Source: a virus
Taxonomy: Duplodnaviria > Heunggongvirae > Uroviricota > Caudoviricetes
IMG/VR virus record: IMGVR_UViG_3300036770_007945
Coordinates: 1 to 64,000 of that record
DNA: 64,000 bases
Reading direction: 5' to 3' (one strand)
How positions within the stretch are numbered: position 1 is the stretch's first letter; each line of letters begins with the position of its first letter. The notes under the pieces are model-generated. The model saw only the letters and a list, made by a program, of their open reading frames with translations. It ran no database searches and was not told the DNA's origin. Below are positions 7,509 to 63,857 of the stretch, one piece after another. The translations under genes and the position numbers were made by a program.

Positions 7509-8279
7509 CTAAACAGTAATTAATACTTGAAGAGGTTGGTTTAGGTAAGTCAAATTTTGTCCCGAAGATTGTAAAGAGTCTAAGGTTTTATCAACTAATA
7601 TTCCTACAGTTATAGTTGCTGAAGCCTTCATATCCATGTAATAAGGCTCGTTGTTGAATAAAATCATTGCTACTACAGACTCTAATACATAATGTATAGG
7701 GGCAAGATTATAAAACAGTTCTTGTAAGACGTTTGAATCCAATAAACCTGTTTGATCCAAATAATAAGTAAGACGGTAATGACTTGTAGGGTAAAAGATT
7801 CCTGCTGTTTGGTCTCCTGGATGTTCTAAAATAGTATTATTGTTTGTTAGGTCTTTTTCGACAAAAGCTACAAAATCTTGAGAACCATAGGATGTCCATA
7901 GTTGTTCTAAATGTAGACTAGCGCCACGAATGAAACCAATAAAATCTACTAAACTGAAATCTCCTTGTGTCTCATAGAACTGCGGTAGAAACTCTACTAA
8001 CTTGACATAGTTATCTTGTGTCATGTATTTGCTTAAAAATTTATATCCAAGTAGGTTAGCGTTTCGAATTAATACCCAAAGATCTTGTTTTTGGTTCTCA
8101 CTATACACTAAAGTTTGTCGCAGCTCTGAAAGAGCTTTGATATAAGGAATCACAGAGGTCTTCCAAATCTCTTCTGTTGCCTTCATGTAGTCTGTATAGA
8201 AGGGATTGTTTGCAAGATGCGTCGGTAACAAAGAGGTGAAGTCAACGTTACTGAAAGTAAATTCTGCAGAAGTAGTCAT
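7509..8279 (-). CDS. Hypothetical protein, possibly a virion or baseplate component.
   Basis: A 256-aa ORF immediately downstream of the 478-aa ORF on the same strand. Confidence 0.4.
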   Translation of the reverse strand: MTTSAEFTFSNVDFTSLLPTHLANNPFYTDYMKATEEIWKTSVIPYIKALSELRQTLVYSENQKQDLWVLIRNANLLGYKFLSKYMTQDNYVKLVEFLPQFYETQGDFSLVDFIGFIRGASLHLEQLWTSYGSQDFVAFVEKDLTNNNTILEHPGDQTAGIFYPTSHYRLTYYLDQTGLLDSNVLQELFYNLAPIHYVLESVVAMILFNNEPYYMDMKASATITVGILVDKTLDSLQSSGQNLTYLNQPLQVLITV

Positions 8280-8319
8280 ATGTATATTGTCCTATCTTTA
8301 TAAGGTTTTGCATAACTAG

Positions 8320-9756
8320 TTAAGCTACTATATCACGAGTAGAGTAATAGCTCTCTACAGTTATGCTTGTAAAGTTTACGTATTCGTTTTTTTGAACTAT
8401 AGTATCATTAGGGGAAGACAATGCAAAGTAATCAAGTAATGTCGGATCACCCACAGCATCTCTGATTCTTTTCTCAATATCACTTCTATATATGGAAAAA
8501 CCTAAAGACCCTAAACGTAAAGTTTGTAGAGACTGTAATGCTGTTTGCACAGCTAGTTTTACCGAATTTGGATCTGCTTTACTTGTGCAATATAAAACCA
8601 CATTAATAGTTCTATTTACCGCCGTTGGGTTTAACTGCAAGAACTCTAGATTATCTATTGTTTTAGTTTTCATAAAAGTCACAAAGTCCTGAAACTGCGA
8701 ACTCGTAAATAAAGGGTTTGCCAAGATTACAGCCGTTACTACATTCATATAAGCTTTATCCGCCGGATAGGTTTCTGCTTGACCAAGCAAATTGCAATCT
8801 ATCACTCCTGGGTAAGTTAGAGCAATCGCTTTATATTGAGGACGTGTTACTCCTCCCCCTCTAACATCTGCAGACCTTAAATACGCTCCATGCACTCTGT
8901 AAAACTCAGGATCTTTTGGATCCTCTCCTGAAGACGCCGCTCCTGTAGTTATTCCCGTAACTACCGGATTTGCTAAATAAGAGACAGTAGAACCAATTGG
9001 TAATGTCCCGTTGGTTGCTTTACCTATAGTGTTTACATAAATAAATTCTAATTGGCTGTTTGTAGTAGGAAGTTTACCGTAAAAGCCATCGCCAAATAAT
9101 ACCTCAACTTCTCCTGTCGGAAGAGAGTTCTCATAAAATACTTTACTACCGTTATCTCCAGCTTTAAATAGCCCTTCTGTCGTTTTTGTATACTCTTCTG
9201 TGTTATTCACTATACAATACAAATCTAAATCAGAAATTCCGAAAGCGTCTCCGGAAGTTCCTAAGTAAAAACGCTCATTGATAATGCCAGTAGTTGTTCT
9301 TGATTCTGAAGTTACAGTGCCTTGATATAAAGTTACACTAGCTGAGCTGTTTGGAGAAAGATTAATTGCTGCACGGTTAAAACAATTTACACCGTTAATG
9401 GTGAATTGTGAGTATTTTGCTATGGTTAGACTCTCTCCTGAAGTATTCGTTAAAGTGCATGGAATACTAGCTGGAATTTTTCTTTGTAAGTGTATGCCCC
9501 AGATAGTTCTTGCAATATTTAAAATGGATTTAGACGATCTGGCAGTATCAGGAGAGGTTTCTTGTAAAGCTGCCTCTATAGAAAGTAAATCTGTAACACC
9601 AACATAAGCTGCTAAACTAAGAAGAATGTCTCCAGTTCCTACAGCTAAGGCGTTGTTCCAAGTATCAGGAGCGTTCGCAATCAGGTATGTTCGAAGTTTC
9701 TCTTTATACGCTTCGAAGTCTGTATCTATATTACTCAGCGAAATAGTAGTAGTCAT
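8320..9756 (-). CDS. Hypothetical structural protein.
   Basis: A 478-aa ORF rich in Thr, Ser and Gly. The inner opposite-strand ORFs are spurious. Confidence 0.45.
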   Translation of the reverse strand: MTTTISLSNIDTDFEAYKEKLRTYLIANAPDTWNNALAVGTGDILLSLAAYVGVTDLLSIEAALQETSPDTARSSKSILNIARTIWGIHLQRKIPASIPCTLTNTSGESLTIAKYSQFTINGVNCFNRAAINLSPNSSASVTLYQGTVTSESRTTTGIINERFYLGTSGDAFGISDLDLYCIVNNTEEYTKTTEGLFKAGDNGSKVFYENSLPTGEVEVLFGDGFYGKLPTTNSQLEFIYVNTIGKATNGTLPIGSTVSYLANPVVTGITTGAASSGEDPKDPEFYRVHGAYLRSADVRGGGVTRPQYKAIALTYPGVIDCNLLGQAETYPADKAYMNVVTAVILANPLFTSSQFQDFVTFMKTKTIDNLEFLQLNPTAVNRTINVVLYCTSKADPNSVKLAVQTALQSLQTLRLGSLGFSIYRSDIEKRIRDAVGDPTLLDYFALSSPNDTIVQKNEYVNFTSITVESYYSTRDIVA

Positions 9757-15471: not shown

Positions 15472-15557
15472 TGGTGGAGAGGGCAGGATTTGAACCTGCG
15501 AACGCTTTCGCGGGCAGATTTACAGTCTGCTGCCATTGACCACTCGGCCACCTCTCC
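15472..15557 (-). tRNA. tRNA-Tyr (GTA) with a long variable arm.
   Basis: The reverse complement reads GGAGAGGTGGCCGAGTGGTCAATGGCAGCAGACTGTAAATCTGC...GGTTCAAATCCTGCCCTCTCCACCA. It has a 7-bp acceptor stem, a GTA anticodon in a 7-nt loop, a long variable arm, a T-loop and an encoded CCA. Confidence 0.85.
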
Positions 15558-18561: not shown

Positions 18562-19935
18562 ATGAATACTTTACTAATTAGCTTAATAAGCTTTTTTACT
18601 TTATCAATAATAATAACCTTGCTAGTTGCTTTTTTATTGCGTCGGGTTGTTCCTACAAACGAGGTGCACATCGTCCAGTCTTCTAAAAAGACTACATCTT
18701 ATGGAAAAGAGCAAGGACAAAACACCTACTATGAATTTCCTTCGTGGGTGCCTATCGTAGGGATTACAAAGACTATTTTGCCTGTGAGCGTTTTTGATTT
18801 AGACTTACGCGGATATGAAGCTTATGATAAAGGTAGACTACCTTTCTTGACAGAAATCAAAGCTTTCTTCCGAATCGACGATAGCAACTTAACAGCTCAA
18901 AGAATTTCTTCGTTTGAAGAACTTAAAGAGCAACTGCTCGCAATAGTGCAAGGAGCTGTTAGAACAATTCTTGCAAAATATGATATCGAACAGATCATGC
19001 AGGAGCGTGCAAAATTTGGAGAGGAATTCACAAAAGAGATTGAAAAAGAGCTGACAAGCTGGGGGGTTGTGTCTGTAAAAAACCTCGAATTAATGGATAT
19101 AAGAGATCAGCAAAACATCAACGTCATTCGTAACATAACAGAGAAAAAGAAATCTTTAATAGATAAAGAATCCAGAATAGAGGTCGCCAAAAATACTCAA
19201 TTAGCAAAAGCCGCCGAGATTGAAGCATCAAAGAAAACCGAACTGTTAACTCAAGAGGCTCAACAGGAGATAGGTCAGAGGCAAGCCTTAACAAAAAAAG
19301 AGATCGGAATCTCAGAACAGAAAACGTTACAGGATATTAAGGAACAAGAGAAAGTAACAAAAGAAAAGGAGATGGAGATAGTTCGAGTGGAAGAGGTAAA
19401 AAGAGCGGAAATCCAGAAAGATAAGCAAGTGGTAGAGGCTAACCAACAAAAAGAAACAAACATTACTTTGGCGGAGGGTGTAAAGCAACAAACCATTTTA
19501 GAGGCGGAAGCTAAATTACAAGCACAAAAACTCAACGCCGAAGGTATAAAAGTTGAAGGTGAAGCAAAAGCGACAGCAGAAGATGCAATGCAGTTGGCTC
19601 TAATAAAAGGCCAAGTTACTCTAGCTGATAAAGTTGGGAACAACGAAGGCTATCAAAACTATCTAGCTACTGTCCGTAAAATAGAGGCTGTGCAAATCAT
19701 AGGAGTAGAGCAAGCCAAAGCAATTAAGGACGCTGATATAAAAATTATTGCTAATGGAGGCAGCGTAGAGCAAGGAGTGAACAAAATCGGAGATATACTC
19801 TCAGCTAGAGGCGGCTTACAATTATCAAGTGCTTTAGAGTCTTTTAATCAGACAGAAGTAGGGAGATCCCTAATAGAAAGCTTTATTTCCTTAGGTTCCT
19901 CGCAGAAGCGTGATAAAGAATCTTCGCAAAAGTAA
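18562..19935 (+). CDS. SPFH (band-7) / flotillin-like membrane protein.
   Basis: An N-terminal hydrophobic segment is followed by a band-7-like core (...FFRIDD...ILAKYDIEQIMQERAKFGEEFTKEIEKELTSWGVVSV...) and a long Glu/Lys/Gln/Ala-rich coiled coil typical of flotillin/YqiK. Confidence 0.6.
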   Translation: MNTLLISLISFFTLSIIITLLVAFLLRRVVPTNEVHIVQSSKKTTSYGKEQGQNTYYEFPSWVPIVGITKTILPVSVFDLDLRGYEAYDKGRLPFLTEIKAFFRIDDSNLTAQRISSFEELKEQLLAIVQGAVRTILAKYDIEQIMQERAKFGEEFTKEIEKELTSWGVVSVKNLELMDIRDQQNINVIRNITEKKKSLIDKESRIEVAKNTQLAKAAEIEASKKTELLTQEAQQEIGQRQALTKKEIGISEQKTLQDIKEQEKVTKEKEMEIVRVEEVKRAEIQKDKQVVEANQQKETNITLAEGVKQQTILEAEAKLQAQKLNAEGIKVEGEAKATAEDAMQLALIKGQVTLADKVGNNEGYQNYLATVRKIEAVQIIGVEQAKAIKDADIKIIANGGSVEQGVNKIGDILSARGGLQLSSALESFNQTEVGRSLIESFISLGSSQKRDKESSQK

Positions 19936-20895: not shown

Positions 20896-21657
20896 ATGAA
20901 CAATACCCCTCTCAGGGATAAAAAAAAGAGTCCTCGATTTAAGCCGAAACCTATAACTCTACTGAAGGAAGAAATTTCAGAGCAGTCAATAACCCTGCTT
21001 GACCAACTTTATACAAAATTATTAGAGGTTAATCGAATAGTAACTCCTGAGATAGCTGAACGCCTTTGGGAATACCAGTGGCAAGAACTAACGCAAAGAA
21101 AGCTGCCACTAAGAATTAAAGAAAAATCTAAAGAAGCTTTGTGCGTTATAAAAAAGACTGCTCAAATACAAACATTTAAAGATCTAGTTGATTTTCAACA
21201 AAAAATATTAATAACTTCAGGTAGGTTACGAGAGTCTATACGAATAGCTAATATGCAGGTATTCTACCCCACTATCACGAGAAAGGCTTGGCGAGCCCCT
21301 TCACAAAAAAGTCTTCCAAAGCTTATAGAAGAACTAGACAGGTTTTTACAGGAGCCTTTTAAAAAGGATACCCCTTTGATAAAAATTTGTTTAGTTCAAT
21401 ACTTAATACTGACGGTTCATCCGTTTTGTGATGGAAATGGGAGAGTTTCTAGACTTATACTACCTCATTTATTACCAAGAGACTTACCCTTTCGGTTACA
21501 AGGAGTCAACTACTATTTTAAGAGTGAAGAATTTTATAACCTTATTGCTGAAGTAAGCGCTTTTGATTTTCCTGGAGATATAAACATATGGATTCAAGGA
21601 TGGAGTCTTATAGTCCAGAGTTATTTAGATTCATTACACCGATTACTAACAGAGTAA
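20896..21657 (+). CDS. Fic/Doc-family protein (probable AMPylase or related nucleotidyl/phosphocholine transferase).
   Basis: Canonical Fic motif HPFxDGNGRxxR, present here as VHPFCDGNGRVSRLI. Confidence 0.75.
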   Translation: MNNTPLRDKKKSPRFKPKPITLLKEEISEQSITLLDQLYTKLLEVNRIVTPEIAERLWEYQWQELTQRKLPLRIKEKSKEALCVIKKTAQIQTFKDLVDFQQKILITSGRLRESIRIANMQVFYPTITRKAWRAPSQKSLPKLIEELDRFLQEPFKKDTPLIKICLVQYLILTVHPFCDGNGRVSRLILPHLLPRDLPFRLQGVNYYFKSEEFYNLIAEVSAFDFPGDINIWIQGWSLIVQSYLDSLHRLLTE

Positions 21658-22190: not shown

Positions 22191-22267
22191 CGCCGGATTA
22201 GCTCAGTTGGTAGAGCGTAGAGCTGTTAACTCTAATATCGTAGGTTCGAGTCCTACTCCGTCAGCCA
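22191..22267 (+). tRNA. tRNA-Asn (GTT)-like gene.
   Basis: Canonical D arm (GCTC-AGTTGGTA-GAGC), anticodon arm (TAGAG-CTGTTAA-CTCTA, anticodon GTT), T arm (GTAGG-TTCGAGT-CCTAC) and a 3' GCCA. The acceptor stem as I fold it has two mismatches out of seven pairs. Confidence 0.6.
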
Positions 22268-22268
22268 T

Positions 22269-22343
22269 AAGTCAATAGTTTAATTGGTAAAACATTGGTC
22301 TCCAAAACCGAAATTATTAGTTCGAGTCTAATTTGGCTTGCCA
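22269..22343 (+). tRNA. tRNA-Trp (CCA).
   Basis: 7-bp acceptor stem (AAGTCAA/TTGGCTT with one G-U pair), D arm GTTT-AATTGGTA-AAAC, anticodon loop CTCCAAA (CCA), T arm ATTAG-TTCGAGT-CTAAT, discriminator G and CCA. It abuts the Asn-like gene. Confidence 0.8.
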
Positions 22344-24415: not shown

Positions 24416-25471
24416 ATGAGAAAACTAGCAACTATTAGAAAAATTAATGATTTACAGCCAATTGAAGGTGCTGATAAAATAGAATTAGCAACTGTAGATG
24501 GTTGGAAAGTGGTAGTTACCAAAGGATTAAATATTGGTGATAAAATTGTTTATTGCGAAATTGATTCTTTTCTACCAATCAAGCCCGAATTTGAATTTTT
24601 AAGAAAAAGTTCTTACAAAAAACTTATTGATGGCACAGAAGGTTTTAGATTAAAAACTATTAAACTTAGAGGACAGATCTCACAAGGTTTGTGTATTCCA
24701 CTAAATGAATTACCGCAACTCGCCAATAATCAAATTGGTGATGATGTAAGTGAAATTTTGGGAATAATTAAATACGATCCACCAATCCCAGCTTCATTAA
24801 GCGGATTAGCAAAGGGCAACTTTCCTTCTTTCTTAAGAAAGACTGATGAAGAAAGAGTTCAAAACTTAGCTAAAGAATATCAAGAATATCTAAAAAGTGG
24901 TAAAAAGTTTTATGCTACAGAAAAATTAGATGGCTCATCAGCTACTTTTTACTTAAGAGATGGTGTTTTTGGAGTTTGTTCAAGAAACTTAGAACTAAAA
25001 GAAGAGGTTTATGTTCCTGAGGATATTTTGTGCGAAGATGGGGTAATAAGAACTAAAAAACAAAATTCATTCTGGAAAGTAGCTAGGGAATTAGATATTG
25101 AAAATAAATTAAAACAATTGCCATTTAATGCTTGCTTGCAAGGAGAGTTAATTGGAGAAGGGATACAAGGAAATCCTTATAACATTAAAGGACACTCTGT
25201 TAGATTTTTTAATTTGTTCAATATTGATACTTATGAATATAAACCAATTTACGATTTAGAGTATTTCTGCAAGGAAAATGCTTTGCAAACAATTCCTATT
25301 GTTTCTTCTGAGTTTCTTTTGCCCAATACGATTGATGAGCTTCTTCTTTTAGCAGAAGGAAAATCAAACCTCTTTGATTGCGAGCGAGAAGGTTTAGTAA
25401 TTAGGGATATTGATAATACTATAAGCTTTAAAGTAATTTCCAATAAATTTTTAATAAAGACTAACAATTAA
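24416..25471 (+). CDS. RNA ligase of the nucleotidyltransferase superfamily.
   Basis: Motif I KxDG is present as ATEKLDGSSATFY. The N-terminal MRKLATIRKI...ELATVDGWKVVV resembles the N-terminal module of the Rnl-type RNA-ligase families. Confidence 0.55.
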   Translation: MRKLATIRKINDLQPIEGADKIELATVDGWKVVVTKGLNIGDKIVYCEIDSFLPIKPEFEFLRKSSYKKLIDGTEGFRLKTIKLRGQISQGLCIPLNELPQLANNQIGDDVSEILGIIKYDPPIPASLSGLAKGNFPSFLRKTDEERVQNLAKEYQEYLKSGKKFYATEKLDGSSATFYLRDGVFGVCSRNLELKEEVYVPEDILCEDGVIRTKKQNSFWKVARELDIENKLKQLPFNACLQGELIGEGIQGNPYNIKGHSVRFFNLFNIDTYEYKPIYDLEYFCKENALQTIPIVSSEFLLPNTIDELLLLAEGKSNLFDCEREGLVIRDIDNTISFKVISNKFLIKTNN

Positions 25472-27428: not shown

Positions 27429-27574
27429 GGAAAACAAGGTTTAATCGGAATTTTTGATGAAACATTAAAAACATGTATTAAAATAAAGAAATATTATACT
27501 TGCTTTTAAAAATAGAGTAATTACTATTTATTAAGTTACGAATAAATAATAAACAAATAAATAAATAAAAACAT

Positions 27575-28756
27575 ATGAAAAAAGCAGAAATAAAAAAAAG
27601 AGTGTTAAAAAACGGCAAACCTCTTAATTTAAATGACTTCGAGTGGGATGAAGAGACTAAAACATTCTCAACAAGTGAGATCGGATTGGTTTTAGATTTT
27701 ACACTGATTAGTGGCTGCAGTTTTAAAACTGGCGATTACTGCACTTTTAAGACTGGGGATAACTGCAGTTTTAAAACTGGGGATAGCTGCATTTTTAAGA
27801 CTGGGAGTGCTTGTGTTTTTAAAACAGGGAATACCTGCACTTTTGACGCAGGCTACGACTGCACTTTTACCACAAGCGATCACTGCACTTTTAACACAAG
27901 CTACGACTGCACTTTTAACACAGGTTGGCACTGCACTTTTAACACAGGCGGTGACTGCACTTTTAACACAGGCTATAGCTGCAATTTTATCACAAACAAT
28001 AGGTGTATTTTTAACACAAGCTATAACTGCACTTTTAAGACAGAGTCTGACTGCACTTTTAACACAGGCGACTACTGCACTTTTAAGACAGAGTCTAACT
28101 GCACTTTTAACACAGGCGACTACTGCACTTTTAACACAGAGTCTAACTGCACTTTTAACACAGGCGACTACTGCACTTTTAACACAAGCTACGACTGCAC
28201 TTTTAAAACTGGTCTTGAATGTGTAATTGTCAATCGCAATGTTTTTGAAGTAATCCAGCCAAAAGAAGGTGATATAATACAAATTTGCCCTAAAAGTATA
28301 GAAGGTCATTTAGTGAATGGTATCCATAGTATAACTGGTAAAAAATCAATAATAGCAGATGGAATATTATCAGAGATTATATCAAAAAAAGGCAATGTCT
28401 ATAAGGTTATCAATCACGGCGAAACTAAAAAATCTTTTTTAGTTGAAAAAGAAATTAACAATAAAAAATATTACTCTCACGGAGCTTCTCTAAAAGAAGC
28501 TAAAGAAAGTTTAGTATTTAAAATAAGTGATCGAGATTTATCAAAGTGGGAACATTTAAATCTTACTAGTGAGATTAGTTTTGAAGAAGCTATAATGCTA
28601 TACAGAGATATAACTGGAGCTTGTAGAGAAGGAACTAAATACTTTGTTGATAATAATGTTGATAAGAAAAAAGATAAATATTCAATTACTGAATTGTTAG
28701 AAATAACAAAAGACCGGTATGGATACTCCGAATTTAAAAACTTCTTTAATAAATAA
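27575..28756 (+). CDS. Cys-containing octapeptide-repeat protein, paralog A.
   Basis: About 20 tandem 8-aa units (C[T/S/V]F[K/N/T]TG..), encoded by a 24-bp DNA repeat. They are flanked by a ~45-aa N-terminal domain and a ~180-aa C-terminal domain shared with paralog B. Confidence 0.7.
   Translation: MKKAEIKKRVLKNGKPLNLNDFEWDEETKTFSTSEIGLVLDFTLISGCSFKTGDYCTFKTGDNCSFKTGDSCIFKTGSACVFKTGNTCTFDAGYDCTFTTSDHCTFNTSYDCTFNTGWHCTFNTGGDCTFNTGYSCNFITNNRCIFNTSYNCTFKTESDCTFNTGDYCTFKTESNCTFNTGDYCTFNTESNCTFNTGDYCTFNTSYDCTFKTGLECVIVNRNVFEVIQPKEGDIIQICPKSIEGHLVNGIHSITGKKSIIADGILSEIISKKGNVYKVINHGETKKSFLVEKEINNKKYYSHGASLKEAKESLVFKISDRDLSKWEHLNLTSEISFEEAIMLYRDITGACREGTKYFVDNNVDKKKDKYSITELLEITKDRYGYSEFKNFFNK
27710..28225. 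repeat. 24-bp tandem repeat array (TGCACTTTTAACACAGGCGACTAC-like).
   Basis: It encodes the CxFxTGxx units. Both strands are ORF-open across it. Confidence 0.8.
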
Positions 28757-28770
28757 ATAAATAAAAACAT

Positions 28771-29856
28771 ATGAATAAACTACAAATACAACGAAGAGTC
28801 TTGCAGCACGGTGAGGCTCTACCTCTAACTCGTTTTGAGTGGGATGAAAAAACTAGAACATTTTCAACAGAGGAGGAGGATTTAGTTTTAGATTTCAGCG
28901 GTATAGAAGGCTACACTTTCAAAACAGGATTCCACTGTGTCTTCAAGACAGGCGGGTATTGTAATTTTATCACAGAAGGCTTCTGCGTTTTCTTTACAAG
29001 TGAAGGCTGTAATTTCACTACAGGTCATAGTTGCACTTTCACTACAGGTCATAGTTGCACTTTCACTACAGATAATGGTTGCACTTTTACTACAGGTCAT
29101 AGTTGCACTTTTAGAACAGAAGGTTGTTGTAATTTCGTTACTGGTAGTAATTGTCATTTTGCTGCTACAGAAAGGTATTGCACTTTTAAGACTGGTGGTA
29201 GTTGCACTTTCATTACAGGAGATGACTGCACTTTCGATACTGGTAGTGACTGCACTTTCGATACAGGAGATGACTGCATTTTTTCTTCTACACACTGCTC
29301 CTTGTTTCATGTAGGCGAGAGAAGTGTGATTATAAGAAAAAGGCCTTTTTTTGAAATCATAAAGCCGAAAGAAAAAGAAGTTATTCAGTTATGTCCTGAA
29401 AACTTGGGGGGCTACTTATCTAACGGTCTATATAAAGGGAAACCTCATATCGTAGCAGATGGAATATTATCAGAAATTGTATCAAAAAAAAGCAATGTCT
29501 ATAAAGTTATTAATCGTGGTGAAACTAAAAAATCTTTTTTAGTTGAAAAAGAAATTAATAATAAAAAATACTATTCTCATGGAGCTACGCTAAAAGAAGC
29601 TAAAGAAAGTTTAGTATTTAAAATAAGCGATCGAGATTTATCAAAGTGGGAACATTTAACTCTTCAAAGTGAAATTAGTTTTGAAGATGCTGTAATGCTC
29701 TATAGAGACATAACAGGAGCTTGTAGCGAAGGAACTAGATATTTTGTTGATAATAATATTGATAAGAAAAAAGATAAATATTCAATTGCTGAATTATTAA
29801 AAATAACAAAAAATCAGTATGGATACTCCGAATTTAAAAACTTCTTTAATAAATAA
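28771..29856 (+). CDS. Cys-containing octapeptide-repeat protein, paralog B.
   Basis: Same architecture with ~16 repeats. The C-terminal ~130 aa are ~90% identical to paralog A. Confidence 0.7.
   Translation: MNKLQIQRRVLQHGEALPLTRFEWDEKTRTFSTEEEDLVLDFSGIEGYTFKTGFHCVFKTGGYCNFITEGFCVFFTSEGCNFTTGHSCTFTTGHSCTFTTDNGCTFTTGHSCTFRTEGCCNFVTGSNCHFAATERYCTFKTGGSCTFITGDDCTFDTGSDCTFDTGDDCIFSSTHCSLFHVGERSVIIRKRPFFEIIKPKEKEVIQLCPENLGGYLSNGLYKGKPHIVADGILSEIVSKKSNVYKVINRGETKKSFLVEKEINNKKYYSHGATLKEAKESLVFKISDRDLSKWEHLTLQSEISFEDAVMLYRDITGACSEGTRYFVDNNIDKKKDKYSIAELLKITKNQYGYSEFKNFFNK
28905..29300. repeat. 24-bp tandem repeat array, second copy.
   Basis: Related units: TGCACTTTCACTACAGGTCATAGT. Confidence 0.75.
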
Positions 29857-29874
29857 ATAAATAAATAAAAACGT

Positions 29875-30585
29875 ATGAAAATGTCAAAAAGTGTATTTAA
29901 TAATCTAAAAATAGAAGCTCTTTATATGAAAATGCCTGGAAGAGTTTTTAATAATCTAGAAATTGAAGCAATAATTGCTGGAAACAAAACTCAATTTAGA
30001 GAAGTAACAAAAATACAACCTACTAACCCTTCACAAGTCCCTTTAGTAGTCACTGAGGGAAGTCTTATAACAGAAGGCCTTGTGACGTTCGCAGAGTTTA
30101 GTAATTCTTATGAAATCTTATCAGAGACACGAGCATTTTTTTGTCCTTATTATGAAGGCCAGAGAATTTTTGTGAAAGAGCACCCGCAAACCACAAGAAG
30201 AGAATCAAATTTAATACTCGATATTAAAAAGGTAAGGCTTGAAAGACTAGAAGAAATAACCGAAGAAGATTGTATAAAGGAAGGTGTTACCTTATTACCA
30301 GGCATCAACTACGAGGCTGGAGATTCGGAGGATCCTAAATTTTATTACGGCGATTTAATAGAGGCTGCTTGTAAGAGCTGTGCTTCAGGAAATACTTCAG
30401 TAAGTGGAATACCAGGTGTTTGCGGTGCCTGTATACACAATCCAAATCCCTACACTAACCTTTTTGATAATCCTCTTGATGCTTTTATAACGCACTGGGA
30501 TTCAACCCATAAAAATCCTAAGCATAAGTTCGATACCAACCCTTATGTTTGTGTAGTTGATTTCATTGTAGAGCTAGATAAATAG
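29875..30585 (+). CDS. Hypothetical protein.
   Basis: A 236-aa ORF preceded by the same AATAAATAAATAAAAAC[A/G]TATG junction as the two repeat genes. It has an internal N-terminal duplication (VFNNLKIEA twice). Confidence 0.45.
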   Translation: MKMSKSVFNNLKIEALYMKMPGRVFNNLEIEAIIAGNKTQFREVTKIQPTNPSQVPLVVTEGSLITEGLVTFAEFSNSYEILSETRAFFCPYYEGQRIFVKEHPQTTRRESNLILDIKKVRLERLEEITEEDCIKEGVTLLPGINYEAGDSEDPKFYYGDLIEAACKSCASGNTSVSGIPGVCGACIHNPNPYTNLFDNPLDAFITHWDSTHKNPKHKFDTNPYVCVVDFIVELDK

Positions 30586-31429: not shown

Positions 31430-31720
31430 TTGAAGGAAATATATGCTGACTGTTATCACAATGTCAGGTTTTTAAAAAATGCACCTCATGAACACGAAAA
31501 TGACGGTTGGGAGCAATTTGAACTAATGCAATTTACAGGCTTAAAAGACAGAAATGGGAAGGAGATTTATGAAGGTGATATACTTTCTCACAGATATTAT
31601 TCTATGCTTGTTATATGTGAATTTGTGGATGGATCTTTCATATTTGATGATGTTTCAAAATATGATAAATCATTAGAAGTTATTGGCAACATTTACGAAA
31701 ATCCTGAACTATTAACTTAA
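31430..31720 (+). CDS. YopX-family protein.
   Basis: GLKDRNGKEIYEGDIL plus the C-terminal IGNIYENPELL signature. Confidence 0.6.
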   Translation: MKEIYADCYHNVRFLKNAPHEHENDGWEQFELMQFTGLKDRNGKEIYEGDILSHRYYSMLVICEFVDGSFIFDDVSKYDKSLEVIGNIYENPELLT

Positions 31721-32021: not shown

Positions 32022-32417
32022 ATGTTTAGCAAAACACAATTTCGTTTCTGGAATAAACTAAGTAAAAAGATGCAAGAGGTAACATATGTAGACTGGCAAA
32101 CAAAAGAAGTCTACATAGGAGAAGATCTTGAAGACTTAGTCGACGGAGTCTTATTAGAGTATACCGGGAAAAAAGACAAAAAAGGTAGAGAGATTTATGA
32201 AGGCGATATTCTGAAAATAAAAACAGGGGTGGATGTAATTATTGGAGATGTCTTTTATGATAGCCAGGATTACTCACGTTTTCAGGTTCGGCACCCTGAA
32301 GGCTGCCACAGCCGTTTTGGTTTAAATAGAGACACCGATGTAGTGGCTACTTGTGAGGTTTTTGAAATCATAGGTAACATTTATGAAAACCCTGACATAA
32401 TAAATAAGATACTTTAA
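32022..32417 (+). CDS. YopX-family protein, paralog of the 31430..31720 product.
   Basis: TGKKDKKGREIYEGDIL plus the C-terminal IGNIYENPDII. Confidence 0.6.
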   Translation: MFSKTQFRFWNKLSKKMQEVTYVDWQTKEVYIGEDLEDLVDGVLLEYTGKKDKKGREIYEGDILKIKTGVDVIIGDVFYDSQDYSRFQVRHPEGCHSRFGLNRDTDVVATCEVFEIIGNIYENPDIINKIL

Positions 32418-40967: not shown

Positions 40968-42308
40968 ATGGCAATTATAACAATAAAATCTAACCGCAAG
41001 GGATTCTCTTATGAGTTAAATAAGAATCCGAAATCCGGATTGCAGGCAAAAAGCTGCAGAGAGGGGATTCTTTTTGGTTTCTTTTCTCGGAAAGGTAAGA
41101 CTTTTAATCTATATTTTCAGGATAGTCCTCTTCTAGTATCCTTTCCCAACACGGAAGAGACGGAGGTAAACTACAACGACTTGACTAGGTATACTAGTCC
41201 TGAATGCTACCTGCATATGCTCGATAAAGGAATCTCTATCAAAGAGCCTGAAGAAGACGTAGAGTCGTTTAACGGCACTTACACTATGTCATTAAGTGGT
41301 GTTACAATCAAAAATACGGAGTTAGCTAAACTATTTGTCTCAGGTGTTCAAGATAAAGTTAAGATTGTTTTCAAAAAACTTTTATTAGAAAATGATGAGA
41401 TCTTTGCTGTGACTTTCGAAATGAAAGCGACATGTCTATACAATATAGTGCAAGTAGTTAAGCTTTTTCTACTTTTAATGTTTGCTCATAACACATCAGG
41501 TGAAAAGCAAAGATACTTTGCTCCGGAACAGGTATGGAAGTATTTACAGCAACTAGTTAGATTAAACCTAAACTATAAGTTACGCTGTGTTTTTAAAGAT
41601 TCTTTTCTACAAAACAGCCTTTTCAAAACAAAATATAAAGAGTTATTAGAAAGGTCTCCTACGCACAGTTATACTTTTAATGTCGATTCAAATCTACAAC
41701 AATGTAAAAACTACATCATGGCTTTACCTATGGTGCATGACTATAAACACATTATAACATTAGGAGATCTAGCAGGGGCTTATTATAAGACTTTGATTAA
41801 GAAGCTAGTAGACACAAAGGAAGATAATATTTACCTTTCGTTATTAGGTGTAAATGATAGGATTGCTTCAAAAGCGTCTCAAGATTCTGTTCAGGAGGCA
41901 TGCGCCGTAAACATTTATAACACAGTAGAAGATATAAAGTCTTCCTTAGGAGATTTTACTAAGAAAGGGGCGGCCACTTTAATAATCCATCTTGAGGATT
42001 TAGAAAAATATTCGCAAAAACCTTTGATTAGTGTCTCTGATGAAGAGGAGGGTAGTATAAATTCCGCTTGCGAGTTGATTAAAGGTCTAAGCGCAAAACA
42101 ATTCACTCTCGAAGACTTACAGGTAAGTAAAATAGTAGTAGTCGACTGTTTAGAATCTGAGGATGACTCTCAAGTAGATACTAAATACCGCTTGCTATTT
42201 TTAAAGGCTTTGGGATGTTCATGGGAGTTAATAAATAGCACTTTAGTAGGGGATAGAGTTGACGATTATCAGCCTTACCGTGTCGATATCTACAACGAGC
42301 TTTACTAG
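40968..42308 (+). CDS. Hypothetical protein.
   Basis: A 446-aa ORF. Confidence 0.45.
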   Translation: MAIITIKSNRKGFSYELNKNPKSGLQAKSCREGILFGFFSRKGKTFNLYFQDSPLLVSFPNTEETEVNYNDLTRYTSPECYLHMLDKGISIKEPEEDVESFNGTYTMSLSGVTIKNTELAKLFVSGVQDKVKIVFKKLLLENDEIFAVTFEMKATCLYNIVQVVKLFLLLMFAHNTSGEKQRYFAPEQVWKYLQQLVRLNLNYKLRCVFKDSFLQNSLFKTKYKELLERSPTHSYTFNVDSNLQQCKNYIMALPMVHDYKHIITLGDLAGAYYKTLIKKLVDTKEDNIYLSLLGVNDRIASKASQDSVQEACAVNIYNTVEDIKSSLGDFTKKGAATLIIHLEDLEKYSQKPLISVSDEEEGSINSACELIKGLSAKQFTLEDLQVSKIVVVDCLESEDDSQVDTKYRLLFLKALGCSWELINSTLVGDRVDDYQPYRVDIYNELY

Positions 42309-46207: not shown

Positions 46208-46393
46208 AATTGATGAATCGTTGCCAATAACTATAAGGTTAAAGATAGAAAGAGTATAAATAAAATTAAAGCGCTGAATAAATAAATAAAATTTTTACTT
46301 TTACTCTTGATTTTAAAAATTGTTATAGTAAAATTGTTTGAGTTAGTAATAACGTCAAAAATTTCTTTTTAAACTTAAATTTATATAAATATT

Positions 46394-62531: not shown

Positions 62532-63857
62532 TTAGAGTCGAGGGTCTAGAGTCTTTTCCTGCTCCTCTATTGCAATGATGTTCGCTAAGACATTCTTATA
62601 GTGATCATTATCTACACTTAAATCTTTATAAGGAATTTTAAGTAATTGTTGAGCATTATTGAACTCCTCTATACTCAACCTCATCTTATTTTTAACATCC
62701 TTTTTAGCTAATAATTTTTGATACTTCGCTGGATTTTCTAAATAATCGAAACCATAAACAAGGCGTAGAAATTCTGGAGTTCTTACTTTTAAAGCCGGTG
62801 CAATGTTCTTCTGGGCTACTTCACTAACGTCTTCCAAGATTGGTTTAACCACAACCCCCTCTAAGTCAGAAGTGGCGTTCGAAGGATTAGCAGCCCCTGC
62901 AGCTACCTTTAATCTCAATAAAGCCTCTTTTAAAGAGAGGTTATTACCGTAATTCTCTTGACAATTGTAAGTAATGCTTGGGTCTTGGCTAATTTCCCAA
63001 TAAGATTGTGCAAAATCCGGTAGAATCTCTGTTCCATCTCGCAATACAATTTTTAAAATTGCAAAAGGTTTAAAAGTTAGGTTTCCTGCAGAGCCAAAAA
63101 GTTCAACCTGTTCAGAAAAGCGTTTGCAGCTACCTTTTAAGAGGGTGAGCTTTTCTTTTGAATCTAACACTAAGTCATTACCTTGTAAAGACTTTAGAGT
63201 ATGAAGAGTTTCTTTTGCGCGTTCCCCTAGATTAGAGGCGCTTGAATCTTTAAGACTATCTAACAAATCCATCTTTGATTTTAAGAACATAGGGAAGCTT
63301 TCTGCTTGTAAAATTTTTAATTCCTTAGCTATCAATTTTGTTAGAGGTTTATAAGTTTTATTTACTAAACCTTTACCTAAACTAAACCAAGGCAATAACT
63401 CCCCATCTAATATAAGGCATTCAATATCATATTTGTCATACAAGGCTTTTACCTTCGCAGAATGTTTAATGCGACGGAAGAAAGCTCTAAAGTTTTCTAT
63501 ACTGCCCTTGTCTTTGAAAACTCTATTAATTTTATAACCACCTCTTGAGATCATATAACAATCCGAAATTTGATCTTTGAGGTAAACAGTGCACCTGCTA
63601 CCCATATATTTTGGTTGAATTATAACTTGGTTAACTTTTTTATCTTTATAATAATTCAGGGCTGCAGACAACTCCTCTAAGGATTTTTCGTCACTTGCTG
63701 AAGGAGCTATAGTATTCGCCACAAAATTCACTTTGTGTTTTGCAAGATTTTTGATTCTTCTTATTGTAGCGCTGTCAGAGACCTCAGTAAATTTAACAGT
63801 ATTAGTGTCAAAGAGTGAGAATAGTTGTGGGCGTTTACTAGCAAAAGTATTATTCAT
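62532..63857 (-). CDS. ATP-dependent polynucleotide ligase (DNA/RNA ligase, nucleotidyltransferase superfamily).
   Basis: Motif I variant IIQPKYMGSR, motif III LILDGELLPW, motif IV EGVVVKP and motif V KVRTPEF occur in the canonical order. Confidence 0.5.
   Translation of the reverse strand: MNNTFASKRPQLFSLFDTNTVKFTEVSDSATIRRIKNLAKHKVNFVANTIAPSASDEKSLEELSAALNYYKDKKVNQVIIQPKYMGSRCTVYLKDQISDCYMISRGGYKINRVFKDKGSIENFRAFFRRIKHSAKVKALYDKYDIECLILDGELLPWFSLGKGLVNKTYKPLTKLIAKELKILQAESFPMFLKSKMDLLDSLKDSSASNLGERAKETLHTLKSLQGNDLVLDSKEKLTLLKGSCKRFSEQVELFGSAGNLTFKPFAILKIVLRDGTEILPDFAQSYWEISQDPSITYNCQENYGNNLSLKEALLRLKVAAGAANPSNATSDLEGVVVKPILEDVSEVAQKNIAPALKVRTPEFLRLVYGFDYLENPAKYQKLLAKKDVKNKMRLSIEEFNNAQQLLKIPYKDLSVDNDHYKNVLANIIAIEEQEKTLDPRL

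Follow-up and report, generated by a model that had tools for sequence, protein, structure and literature searches.

A tandem pair of phage genes combines a predicted octapeptide beta-solenoid with a conserved C-terminal domain lacking a solved relative

Beta-solenoid repeats joined to a constant functional domain are already known, as are octapeptides arranged in 16-residue coils, the latter from the ice-nucleation proteins (INPs). In region IV of the Marinomonas primoryensis antifreeze protein (MpAFP) the coils are 19 residues long, bind Ca2+ and have a Gly/Asp-rich turn, and in the Tenebrio molitor antifreeze protein (TmAFP) the Cys residues form intra-coil disulfides bracing a thin beta-helix. 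INPs consist of 16-residue coils, each made of two octapeptide halves, with inward Ser ladders just before the strands and T-x-T faces directed outward (PMC9418140), and the gp5 helix of phage T4 repeats the 8-residue motif VxGxxxxx and can be tuned in length by added units (PMC4576200). Here we describe two adjacent genes, A and B, each encoding an array of Cys-containing octapeptides in front of a conserved C-terminal domain (C-domain), in a 64,000-nucleotide stretch of phage DNA (Caudoviricetes; IMG/VR record IMGVR_UViG_3300036770_007945, positions 1 to 64,000), hereafter called the window. The two open reading frames (ORFs; 393 and 361 amino acids) had been pointed out in an earlier note made from the letters of the window, and both were confirmed on the + strand (Table 1).

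The array of A holds 22 Cys residues at an exact 8-residue spacing (residues 48-216), giving 21 canonical units with Phe at position 3 in all 21, Thr at position 5 in 20, and Gly at position 6 in only 13. The invariance of Thr-Gly described in the earlier note was therefore overstated. In B, 15 units are canonical, while the first starts with Tyr and the last is degenerate; one unit is nine and one seven residues long, and four units of the type CTFTTGHS/CNFTTGHS carry a T-x-T face. Copy numbers had been put at about 20 and 16; the counts are 21-22 in A and 15-17 in B, all in register. At the DNA level the arrays are tandem repeats far above chance, with periods of 24 and 48, 20.5 copies, 75-78% match and scores of 394-436 according to Tandem Repeats Finder (TRF), and units 14-19 of A, its most recent expansion, consist of three nearly identical 48-nt blocks of two units each. 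A logo of 1667 units from 122 proteins, in which Cys1 and Phe3 are fixed by construction because units were selected by the pattern C-x-F, reads C, T (84%), F, [K/N/D/T], T (96%), G (67%), [S/Y/...], [D/N/G/Y], so that positions 1, 2, 3 and 5 are conserved and positions 4, 7 and 8 are the most variable. The number of units per protein ranges from 5 to 30 (median 14) in the same 122 proteins.

AlphaFold2 (AF2), run on A as a monomer with a 122-sequence alignment, returned a confident beta-solenoid (predicted local distance difference test, pLDDT, 87.9) with one short strand per eight residues from the N-terminal cap to residue 247. A regular solenoid had been anticipated in the earlier note, as had a ladder formed by the single Cys of each unit, and both are supported. 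Strand lengths alternate 4/3 across residues 89-147, i.e. with a period of two units, and in fold comparison the model best resembled two-sheet single-chain solenoids. It is likely that the arrays of A and B fold, in the manner of INPs, into a solenoid of one chain with Cys, Phe and Thr turned into its core, and that this solenoid is joined to a conserved and novel C-domain. On the basis of the model and of the analogy to INPs, a flat solenoid whose coils comprise two units (16 residues) each is favoured, because of the 4/3 alternation of strands and the two-unit, 48-nt expansions in A. In such a coil, ladders of Cys1, Phe3 and Thr5 from successive units would point into the core, the two flat faces would be formed by Thr2 and by position 4, which varies, and the turns by positions 6-8.

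The period of eight residues had been considered to match none of the common solenoid classes (pentapeptide, hexapeptide, nonapeptide), a view that is contradicted by the 2 x 8 coils of INPs (PMC9418140) and by the VxGxxxxx motif of T4 gp5 (PMC4576200), and relatives of A and B pass the Pfam thresholds of both families. P0118, with N- and C-domains of the A type (C-domain 62% identity) and units S-T-Q-[K/T]-A-G-x-x, passes Ice_nucleation (PF00818) with 35.2 bits against a threshold of 27, which was unexpected for a phage protein. P0168, with units S-T-I-[K/D]-A-[S/G]-x-x, barely passes Gp5_trimer_C (31.4 bits against 30.9), and matches to the latter family were obtained for six family members in total. 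A and B themselves gave no match to PF00818 at E ≤ 1 and none to PF22178 (Gp5_trimer_C). Whole arrays lacking Cys, with Ser, Ala or Asn instead, are found between the same end domains (P0118, P0132, P0128, P0139, P0145), and P0118, P0132, P0134 and P0128 were seen to have INP-like arrays of S-T-Q-[K/T]-A-G-x-x or S-S-T-I-x-A-G-x with zero Cys. Since the alignment of these variants equates C with S/A/N, F with Q/I/V and T with A, Cys1 is placed at the inward ladder position of INPs, and by analogy to the Ser ladder it is best understood as a small residue buried in the core.

Likeness to the INP repeat (PF00818; coil AGYGSTQTAGEESSLT) would accordingly extend to the octapeptide sub-repeat, two of which may form each 16-residue coil of a flat two-sheet solenoid, to an inward ladder of small residues before each strand (Ser5/Ser13 in INPs, Cys1 in A and B), and to an outward Thr-x-[Thr/polar] face. 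The core is Cys/Phe/Thr in A and B whereas it is Ser/Gln/Ala in INPs, and 15-22 units compare with 50-80 coils; moreover, INPs are outer-membrane proteins, whereas A and B are probably cytoplasmic phage proteins with another C-terminal domain and no hint of ice activity. The triple-stranded beta-helix of T4 gp5 and VgrG (PF22178) shares the 8-residue period, the phage origin and the scores of some relatives, but forms an intertwined baseplate trimer with V-x-G in place of F-x-T-G, while A and B are predicted to be single-chain and lie in a non-structural gene context. To MpAFP region IV (PDB 3p4g) the likeness is in fold only, at 9% sequence identity; MpAFP is an extracellular adhesin, and with a period of 8, no Ca2+ motif and no GGxGxD motif A and B are no Ca2+ beta-rolls of the RTX/MpAFP type, for which the nonapeptide GGxGxDxUx or a 19-residue xGTGND coil is characteristic. 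The 12-residue TCTxSxxCxxAx coils of TmAFP resemble them in the thin beta-helix, the regular Cys and the Thr-x-Thr face, which recurs in the CTFTTGHS units of B, but TmAFP is secreted, and a disulfide-braced helix of its type does not fit the 8/16 period, the lack of a signal peptide and the sister arrays in which Ser, Ala or Asn stands in for Cys. Pentapeptide and hexapeptide solenoids are likewise set aside by the period of 8 and by the lack of a Pfam match for A and B.

Modelled alone, the C-domain reached a pLDDT of 94.1 as a five-strand meander followed by a helix and a small helical part, in which H302 ends a strand and C350 directly precedes a helix. Conservation was assessed by aligning A with 140 sequences taken from 50%-identity representatives (n=141), and the resulting set of near-invariant residues (Table 1), viewed on the model, looks like a catalytic or ligand site. 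In an exhaustive profile search of a library of cluster representatives at 50% identity, 1340 representative clusters were retrieved at E ≤ 1e-3 and 799 at E ≤ 1e-10, and the domain was C-terminal in all of them. Neither A nor B produced anything above threshold in Pfam, PHROGs or NCBIfam. PDB searches by sequence, with single sequence and profile, gave nothing significant (best RIO2 kinase, E = 0.13), comparison of the C-domain with BFVD returned only five uncharacterised phage proteins, and PADLOC produced for A and B only a spurious weak repeat match. The literature searched on the A/B family, on phage Cys-ladder solenoids and on DUF4261 contained nothing relevant.

Several candidate identities of the C-domain were rejected. 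DUF4261 was matched weakly by 19 of the 141 members (best E = 0.0011, below threshold) and carries no functional information, and a permuted papain-like enzyme (papain/NlpC-P60/LRAT type) found no agreement at the level of fold. The tail-spike chaperone Peptidase_S74, an autocleaving C-terminal domain that follows a trimeric fibre, has no match in A or B and is not among the 25 families most matched by the 141 members. Nucleic-acid binding by a basic C-domain is not a family trait (median isoelectric point, pI, 8.05; interquartile range 5.95-9.12). The leucine-rich repeat (LRR) effectors with a NEL domain (IpaH/SspH) offer an analogy only: in them, too, an invariant Cys lies in a constant C-terminal domain that comes after a variable repeat solenoid for target recognition, but the C-domain of A and B has no sequence or fold similarity to NEL or to any solved structure. 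The automatic names 'E3 ubiquitin-protein ligase' and 'SspH2' were seen on proteins of one of the phages matched in BFVD.

Overall, A and B are 60% identical (BLASTP, E = 1e-157). The reading frame is genuine and no by-product of the repeats, since more than 500 homologues hold the N-domain, array and C-domain in a single frame and since the ratio of nonsynonymous to synonymous substitution rates (dN/dS) between the two C-domains is 0.17, which places this domain under purifying selection. The arrays also contain long ORFs in other frames (27692-28309 and 28888-29310 on the - strand, 27711-28226 and 28937-29314 on the + strand), which are artefacts of stop-free repeats. Public gene calls matching A and B are 147 and 176 amino acids long (P0121, P0122) instead of 393 and 361. 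No signal peptide and no transmembrane segment was detected in either sequence.

At least five repeat types, unrelated to one another, occur in fusion with the C-domain. LRR-like 20-mers (LTSLPEGLTVGGSLDLRG) are the commonest, octapeptides occur as CTFxTG, STVTTG, ATIKAG, STIDAG, NTITAG and NSSVEA, and 18-mers, 21-mers and nonapeptides were found as well. In IMG/VR, 285 matches to the superfamily were confirmed, while among INPHARED phages no near-identical DNA to the A/B region was present and the C-domain was retrieved by tblastn only from Tetrasphaera phage TJE1 and Dulem virus 31. TJE1 is the sole carrier in culture that was encountered. Its gene 'orf51' (132 amino acids; L031 ~7640-8411) is a truncated call: 120 further residues, three LRR-like repeats among them, precede it in frame. 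Apparent stand-alone C-domains (TJE1 orf51, P0121/P0122) are thus truncated gene calls, and no full-length member without an array was securely seen, as the short matches include truncated calls (P0121, P0122). Copy number varies from two in tandem, as here, to four in tandem in L001, three dispersed on one 72-kb contig, and single genes elsewhere. The four paralogues of L001 (7834-12390 of a 109-kb phage contig; 349, 374, 438 and 358 amino acids; frames overlapping by 4 nt) have common N- and C-domains and different octapeptide arrays. A scan of reference genomes returned only 16 contigs from metagenome-assembled genomes, most likely binned phage contigs, and because these span unrelated phyla no host can be assigned.

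The arrays change faster than the domains that flank them. Unit numbers differ (15/12, 14/12, 14/15 and 30/11) even between genes whose C-domains are 97-100% and whose N-domains are 96-98% identical, which bears out the repeat diversification described in the earlier note. Between genes with equal unit numbers, positions 4, 6, 7 and 8 account for 78 of 84 differences, and in one such pair the array differs at 35% of the sites, the N-domain at 6% and the C-domain at 13%. In 31 of the 79 IMG/VR loci (L020-L098) the homologous ORF meets the contig end inside the array, so that short-read assemblies systematically break within the arrays, and these contig ends may reflect repeat variation within populations.

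The relation between A and B is also uneven along the genes. The first 45 codons share 66.7% of their nucleotides, and the last 100-140 codons 89-91%, falling to 75% over 180 codons; the near-identical 3' stretch, put at about 130-180 residues in the earlier note, therefore spans about 135 residues and not 180. Synonymous divergence (dS) is 1.29 for the N-domain and 0.33 for the C-domain. By these sequence comparisons the pair is a mosaic with a more recently shared 3' part, and therefore the recent duplication proposed earlier, although the genes are indeed tandem paralogues, is too simple; gene conversion or recombination at the 3' end appears to fit better. Three (AATA)n tracts flank the genes (Table 1) and make up the leader 'AATAAATAAATAAAAAC[A/G]TATG' of A, of B and of the next gene (29875). 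Allowing one mismatch at most, (AATA)n has 10 matches in the window where about 0.6 are expected, nine of them in the three tracts and one at 46277-46290. Cassettes may have been duplicated by recombination at these tracts, or the tracts may serve the genes as a common signal for translation or transcription.

Table 1. Features of the A/B locus, in coordinates of the window.
Feature	Coordinates	Strand	Description and evidence
Gene A	27575..28756	+	393 aa; N-terminal cap, octapeptide solenoid, linker, conserved C-terminal domain; ORF list, >500 full-length homologues, AF2 pLDDT 87.9
A, N-terminal cap domain	27575..27715	+	aa 1-47; conserved W24, D41, F42; alignment; AF2 short helix and strands running into the solenoid; 57% aa identity to B
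A, array	27716..28219	+	aa 48-215; 21 units C-T-F-x-T-G-x-x; DNA period 24/48; Cys spacing exactly 8; TRF 27715-28206; three near-identical 48-nt copies in units 14-19
A, degenerate last unit, C-cap and linker	28220..28333	+	aa 216-253; AF2 strands 217-247 extend the solenoid; conserved 'CVIVxRxxFEVI...P...G' in alignment
A, conserved C-terminal domain	28334..28753	+	aa 254-393; near-invariant D262 (139/141), H302 (140/141), G303 (139/141), K316 (140/141), Y343 (140/141), T347 (138/141), G348 (141/141), C350 (140/141), T378 (139/141)
Gene B	28771..29856	+	361 aa; paralogue of A; ORF list, BLASTP against A
B, N-terminal cap domain	28771..28911	+	aa 1-47; alignment to A
B, array	28912..29319	+	aa 48-183; ~17 units, 15 canonical; Cys spacing, TRF, unit logo
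B, C-cap and linker	29320..29433	+	aa 184-221; alignment to A
B, conserved C-terminal domain	29434..29853	+	aa 222-361; to A 88% aa and 89% nucleotide identity
(AATA)n tract directly upstream of A ATG	27541..27569	+	TRF, alignment, pattern search
(AATA)n tract over A stop codon and B leader	28748..28765	+	TRF, alignment, pattern search
(AATA)n tract over B stop codon and leader of next gene (29875)	29848..29869	+	TRF, alignment, pattern search

The window comes from a large myovirus-like phage and encodes, among others, a tail sheath, a tail fibre, a RecA/UvsX-like protein and a dUTPase; the tail sheath is only about 35% identical to the best relatives, and no near DNA match to the phage was found among deposited phages. 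Genes of the A/B family are situated in runs of small same-strand genes adjoining replication and recombination functions. Neighbours are RNA ligase, phosphoesterase, dUTPase and YopX in the window, SbcCD-like genes in L002, DnaB, Sak and YqaJ in L100, and ERF and exonuclease in TJE1, and the recurrent neighbours across loci are YopX (18 loci, the most frequent), a helicase-like family (17) and a family similar to single-stranded-DNA-binding proteins (8). In the window, two paralogous small genes (31430-31720 and 32022-32417) end in the YopX-like motif 'IGNIYENPE/D'. The extracellular adhesin or receptor-binding element suggested in the earlier note does not agree with this context of early, replication and recombination genes, which are not virion genes; the tail sheath gene is about 7.5 kb away on the opposite strand.

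From the architecture, the conservation, the gene context and the evolutionary dynamics a tentative picture can be drawn. Each protein begins with a 47-residue N-terminal cap, would continue as a single-chain, flattened two-sheet beta-solenoid with two octapeptides per coil, and ends in a conserved 140-residue alpha/beta domain with a near-invariant Asp/His/Lys/Tyr/Cys constellation. Throughout the superfamily the C-domain is constant, and solenoids of different types (octapeptides, LRR-like 18-21-mers, nonapeptides) can be exchanged in front of it, with the number and surface residues of their units changing much faster than the remainder of the protein. The solenoid would most likely use its quickly changing surface to recognise a partner that varies, probably a protein of the host, and would bring the C-domain to it early in infection; the C-domain would be an enzyme or else a module that docks to a universal target, and tandem paralogues such as A and B would form a small panel of specificities. 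We propose, as the best but still tentative reading, that A and B are cytoplasmic non-virion proteins built of cap, solenoid and C-domain, in which the solenoid is a recognition surface presenting a constant effector or docking domain early in infection.

Several points weigh against this picture. Proteins with an odd number of units are as frequent as those with an even number (61 each), and super-periods of 24 residues occur in some relatives, so that the 16-residue coil stays a prediction; the monomer AF2 model would also be compatible with an intertwined trimer. The C-domain is without a detectable relative of known function, and the word effector is suggested solely by its pattern of conserved residues. 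Early expression is likewise deduced solely from gene neighbourhood, and the rapid change of unit number and surface could reflect relaxed constraint and replication slippage in place of selection.

If the last point were pursued, only the C-domain would be functional, and the solenoid would be a generic, stable spacer or solubility module without a part in recognition, its unit number and surface drifting by slippage and unequal recombination. The interchange of non-homologous solenoid types before the same C-domain, the range of 5 to 30 units with no preferred value, and the near-identical 24- and 48-nt copies, which favour slippage, all agree with such a neutral rod. We nevertheless consider it unlikely: long intact arrays with strictly conserved scaffold positions are kept in hundreds of lineages, several paralogues with differing arrays are maintained side by side, the differences concentrate on exposed positions between nearly identical flanking domains, and no array-less full-length member was securely seen. 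Of similarly low probability is a more specific form of the recognition-scaffold proposal, a rapidly re-targetable phage effector in which exchangeable solenoids (octapeptide Cys ladder, LRR-like and others), evolving through gain, loss and shuffling of units, would recognise changing host proteins, e.g. defence factors, and the C-domain would be an enzyme of new fold (invariant Asp/His/Cys, with Lys and Tyr) that modifies or cleaves the target early in infection.

In tail-spike proteins, intramolecular chaperones form a constant C-terminal domain behind a variable beta-helix. A and B recall this arrangement, and they might accordingly be intertwined trimers with a triple-stranded beta-helix like that of gp5 and VgrG, a C-domain for trimerisation or assembly, and a place in a fibre or spike, possibly on the virion. 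The 8-residue motif of T4 gp5 (VxGxxxxx; PMC4576200) and the six family members matching Gp5_trimer_C, P0168 just over its threshold, speak in the same direction. However, A and B have no Gp5_trimer_C match and their Gly follows the hydrophobic position by three residues, not two; the AF2 model of the monomer is confident and best matched by two-sheet single-chain solenoids; and the same C-domain also follows LRR-like arrays, which are single-chain folds. In addition, A and B lie among early and replication genes, apart from the sheath gene on the opposite strand, and their C-terminal end is conserved, where fibres usually have a variable receptor-binding end. A trimeric fibre or spike is thus rather improbable.

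Metals bound by the Cys of each unit, or a disulfide ladder, had been proposed in the earlier note; a cofactor of the Fe-S type would be a variant of the same idea. The perfect register of the 22 Cys in A, the conservation of the other scaffold positions in the subfamily logo (its units having been chosen for Cys1 and Phe3), and the precedent of TmAFP would be in keeping with a ladder of this kind. Such a function is nevertheless not required and very unlikely, because whole arrays with the same end domains do without Cys, carrying Ser, Ala or Asn throughout, and because the absence of a signal peptide implies the reducing cytoplasm; in a two-fold, INP-like coil, moreover, the residue opposite Cys1 would be Thr5, not another Cys.

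The origin of phage lambda lies within gene O, and with the arrays of the family found in replication modules beside DnaB, initiator-like and helicase-like genes, the 24-nt repeat might be read as iterons, e.g. of a replication origin inside the gene, with the protein repeat being secondary; this has very little probability, as the DNA copies are merely 75-78% alike with variation at wobble and variable codons and the fold residues kept, up to four tandem arrays occur in one genome, and the arrays encode well-formed solenoids of several classes. An acidic solenoid imitating DNA for anti-restriction, as in pentapeptide-repeat proteins or Ocr, is just as implausible despite the acidic array regions (pI 4.5 in A, 5.1 in B) and the early-gene context, for the family-median net charge of the N-terminal and repeat part is only about -1.9 per 100 residues, one third of the members are not acidic there, and the flat faces bear Thr, Lys and Asn and not rows of carboxylates.

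Further observations were made on the genome around the pair. The genes at 24416-25471, 40968-42308 and 62532-63857 encode an RNA ligase (PHA02142 OB, i.e. oligonucleotide/oligosaccharide-binding, fold and RNA_ligase) and proteins with a Hen1 N-terminal domain and a Pnkp-type ligase domain, and three tRNAs are located at 15472-15557, 22191-22267 and 22269-22343; together they look like an RNA/tRNA repair toolkit, which possibly counters host anticodon nucleases. A Shine-Dalgarno motif precedes 2 of the 28 genes checked, leaders being A/T-rich, which suggests a host that does not rely on such motifs, e.g. Bacteroidota. Upstream in the same early region lie an SPFH/Band 7 protein (18562-19935) and a Fic/DOC protein (20896-21657), and on a 284-kb contig the homologue P0011 is likewise followed, after about 1 kb, by a Band 7 gene (L002 12312-13664). 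The gene after B (29875-30585) has its first ~17 codons tandemly duplicated (MKMSKSVFNNLKIEALY / MKMPGRVFNNLEIEAII) and no Pfam match.

With regard to earlier work, the new elements are the Cys/Phe/Thr-cored CTFxTGxx unit, an unannotated C-domain without a solved relative, and the swapping of solenoid classes across a superfamily. A and B belong to a large unnamed superfamily of phage proteins missed by Pfam, PHROGs and NCBIfam, which has likely been overlooked in part because gene callers truncate the genes and short-read assemblies break inside them. The truncated calls and assembly breaks are a practical warning for phage annotation, as are the long competing ORFs spawned by stop-free repeats. 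The pair adds a Cys/Phe/Thr-cored octapeptide solenoid, as predicted, to the small set of 8/16-residue solenoids, and a confidently predicted domain with an enzyme-like set of invariant residues and no solved relative. If the solenoid is a fast-evolving recognition module, as proposed here, these genes would mark phage-host arms races, and their arrays would constitute a natural, length-tunable binding scaffold.

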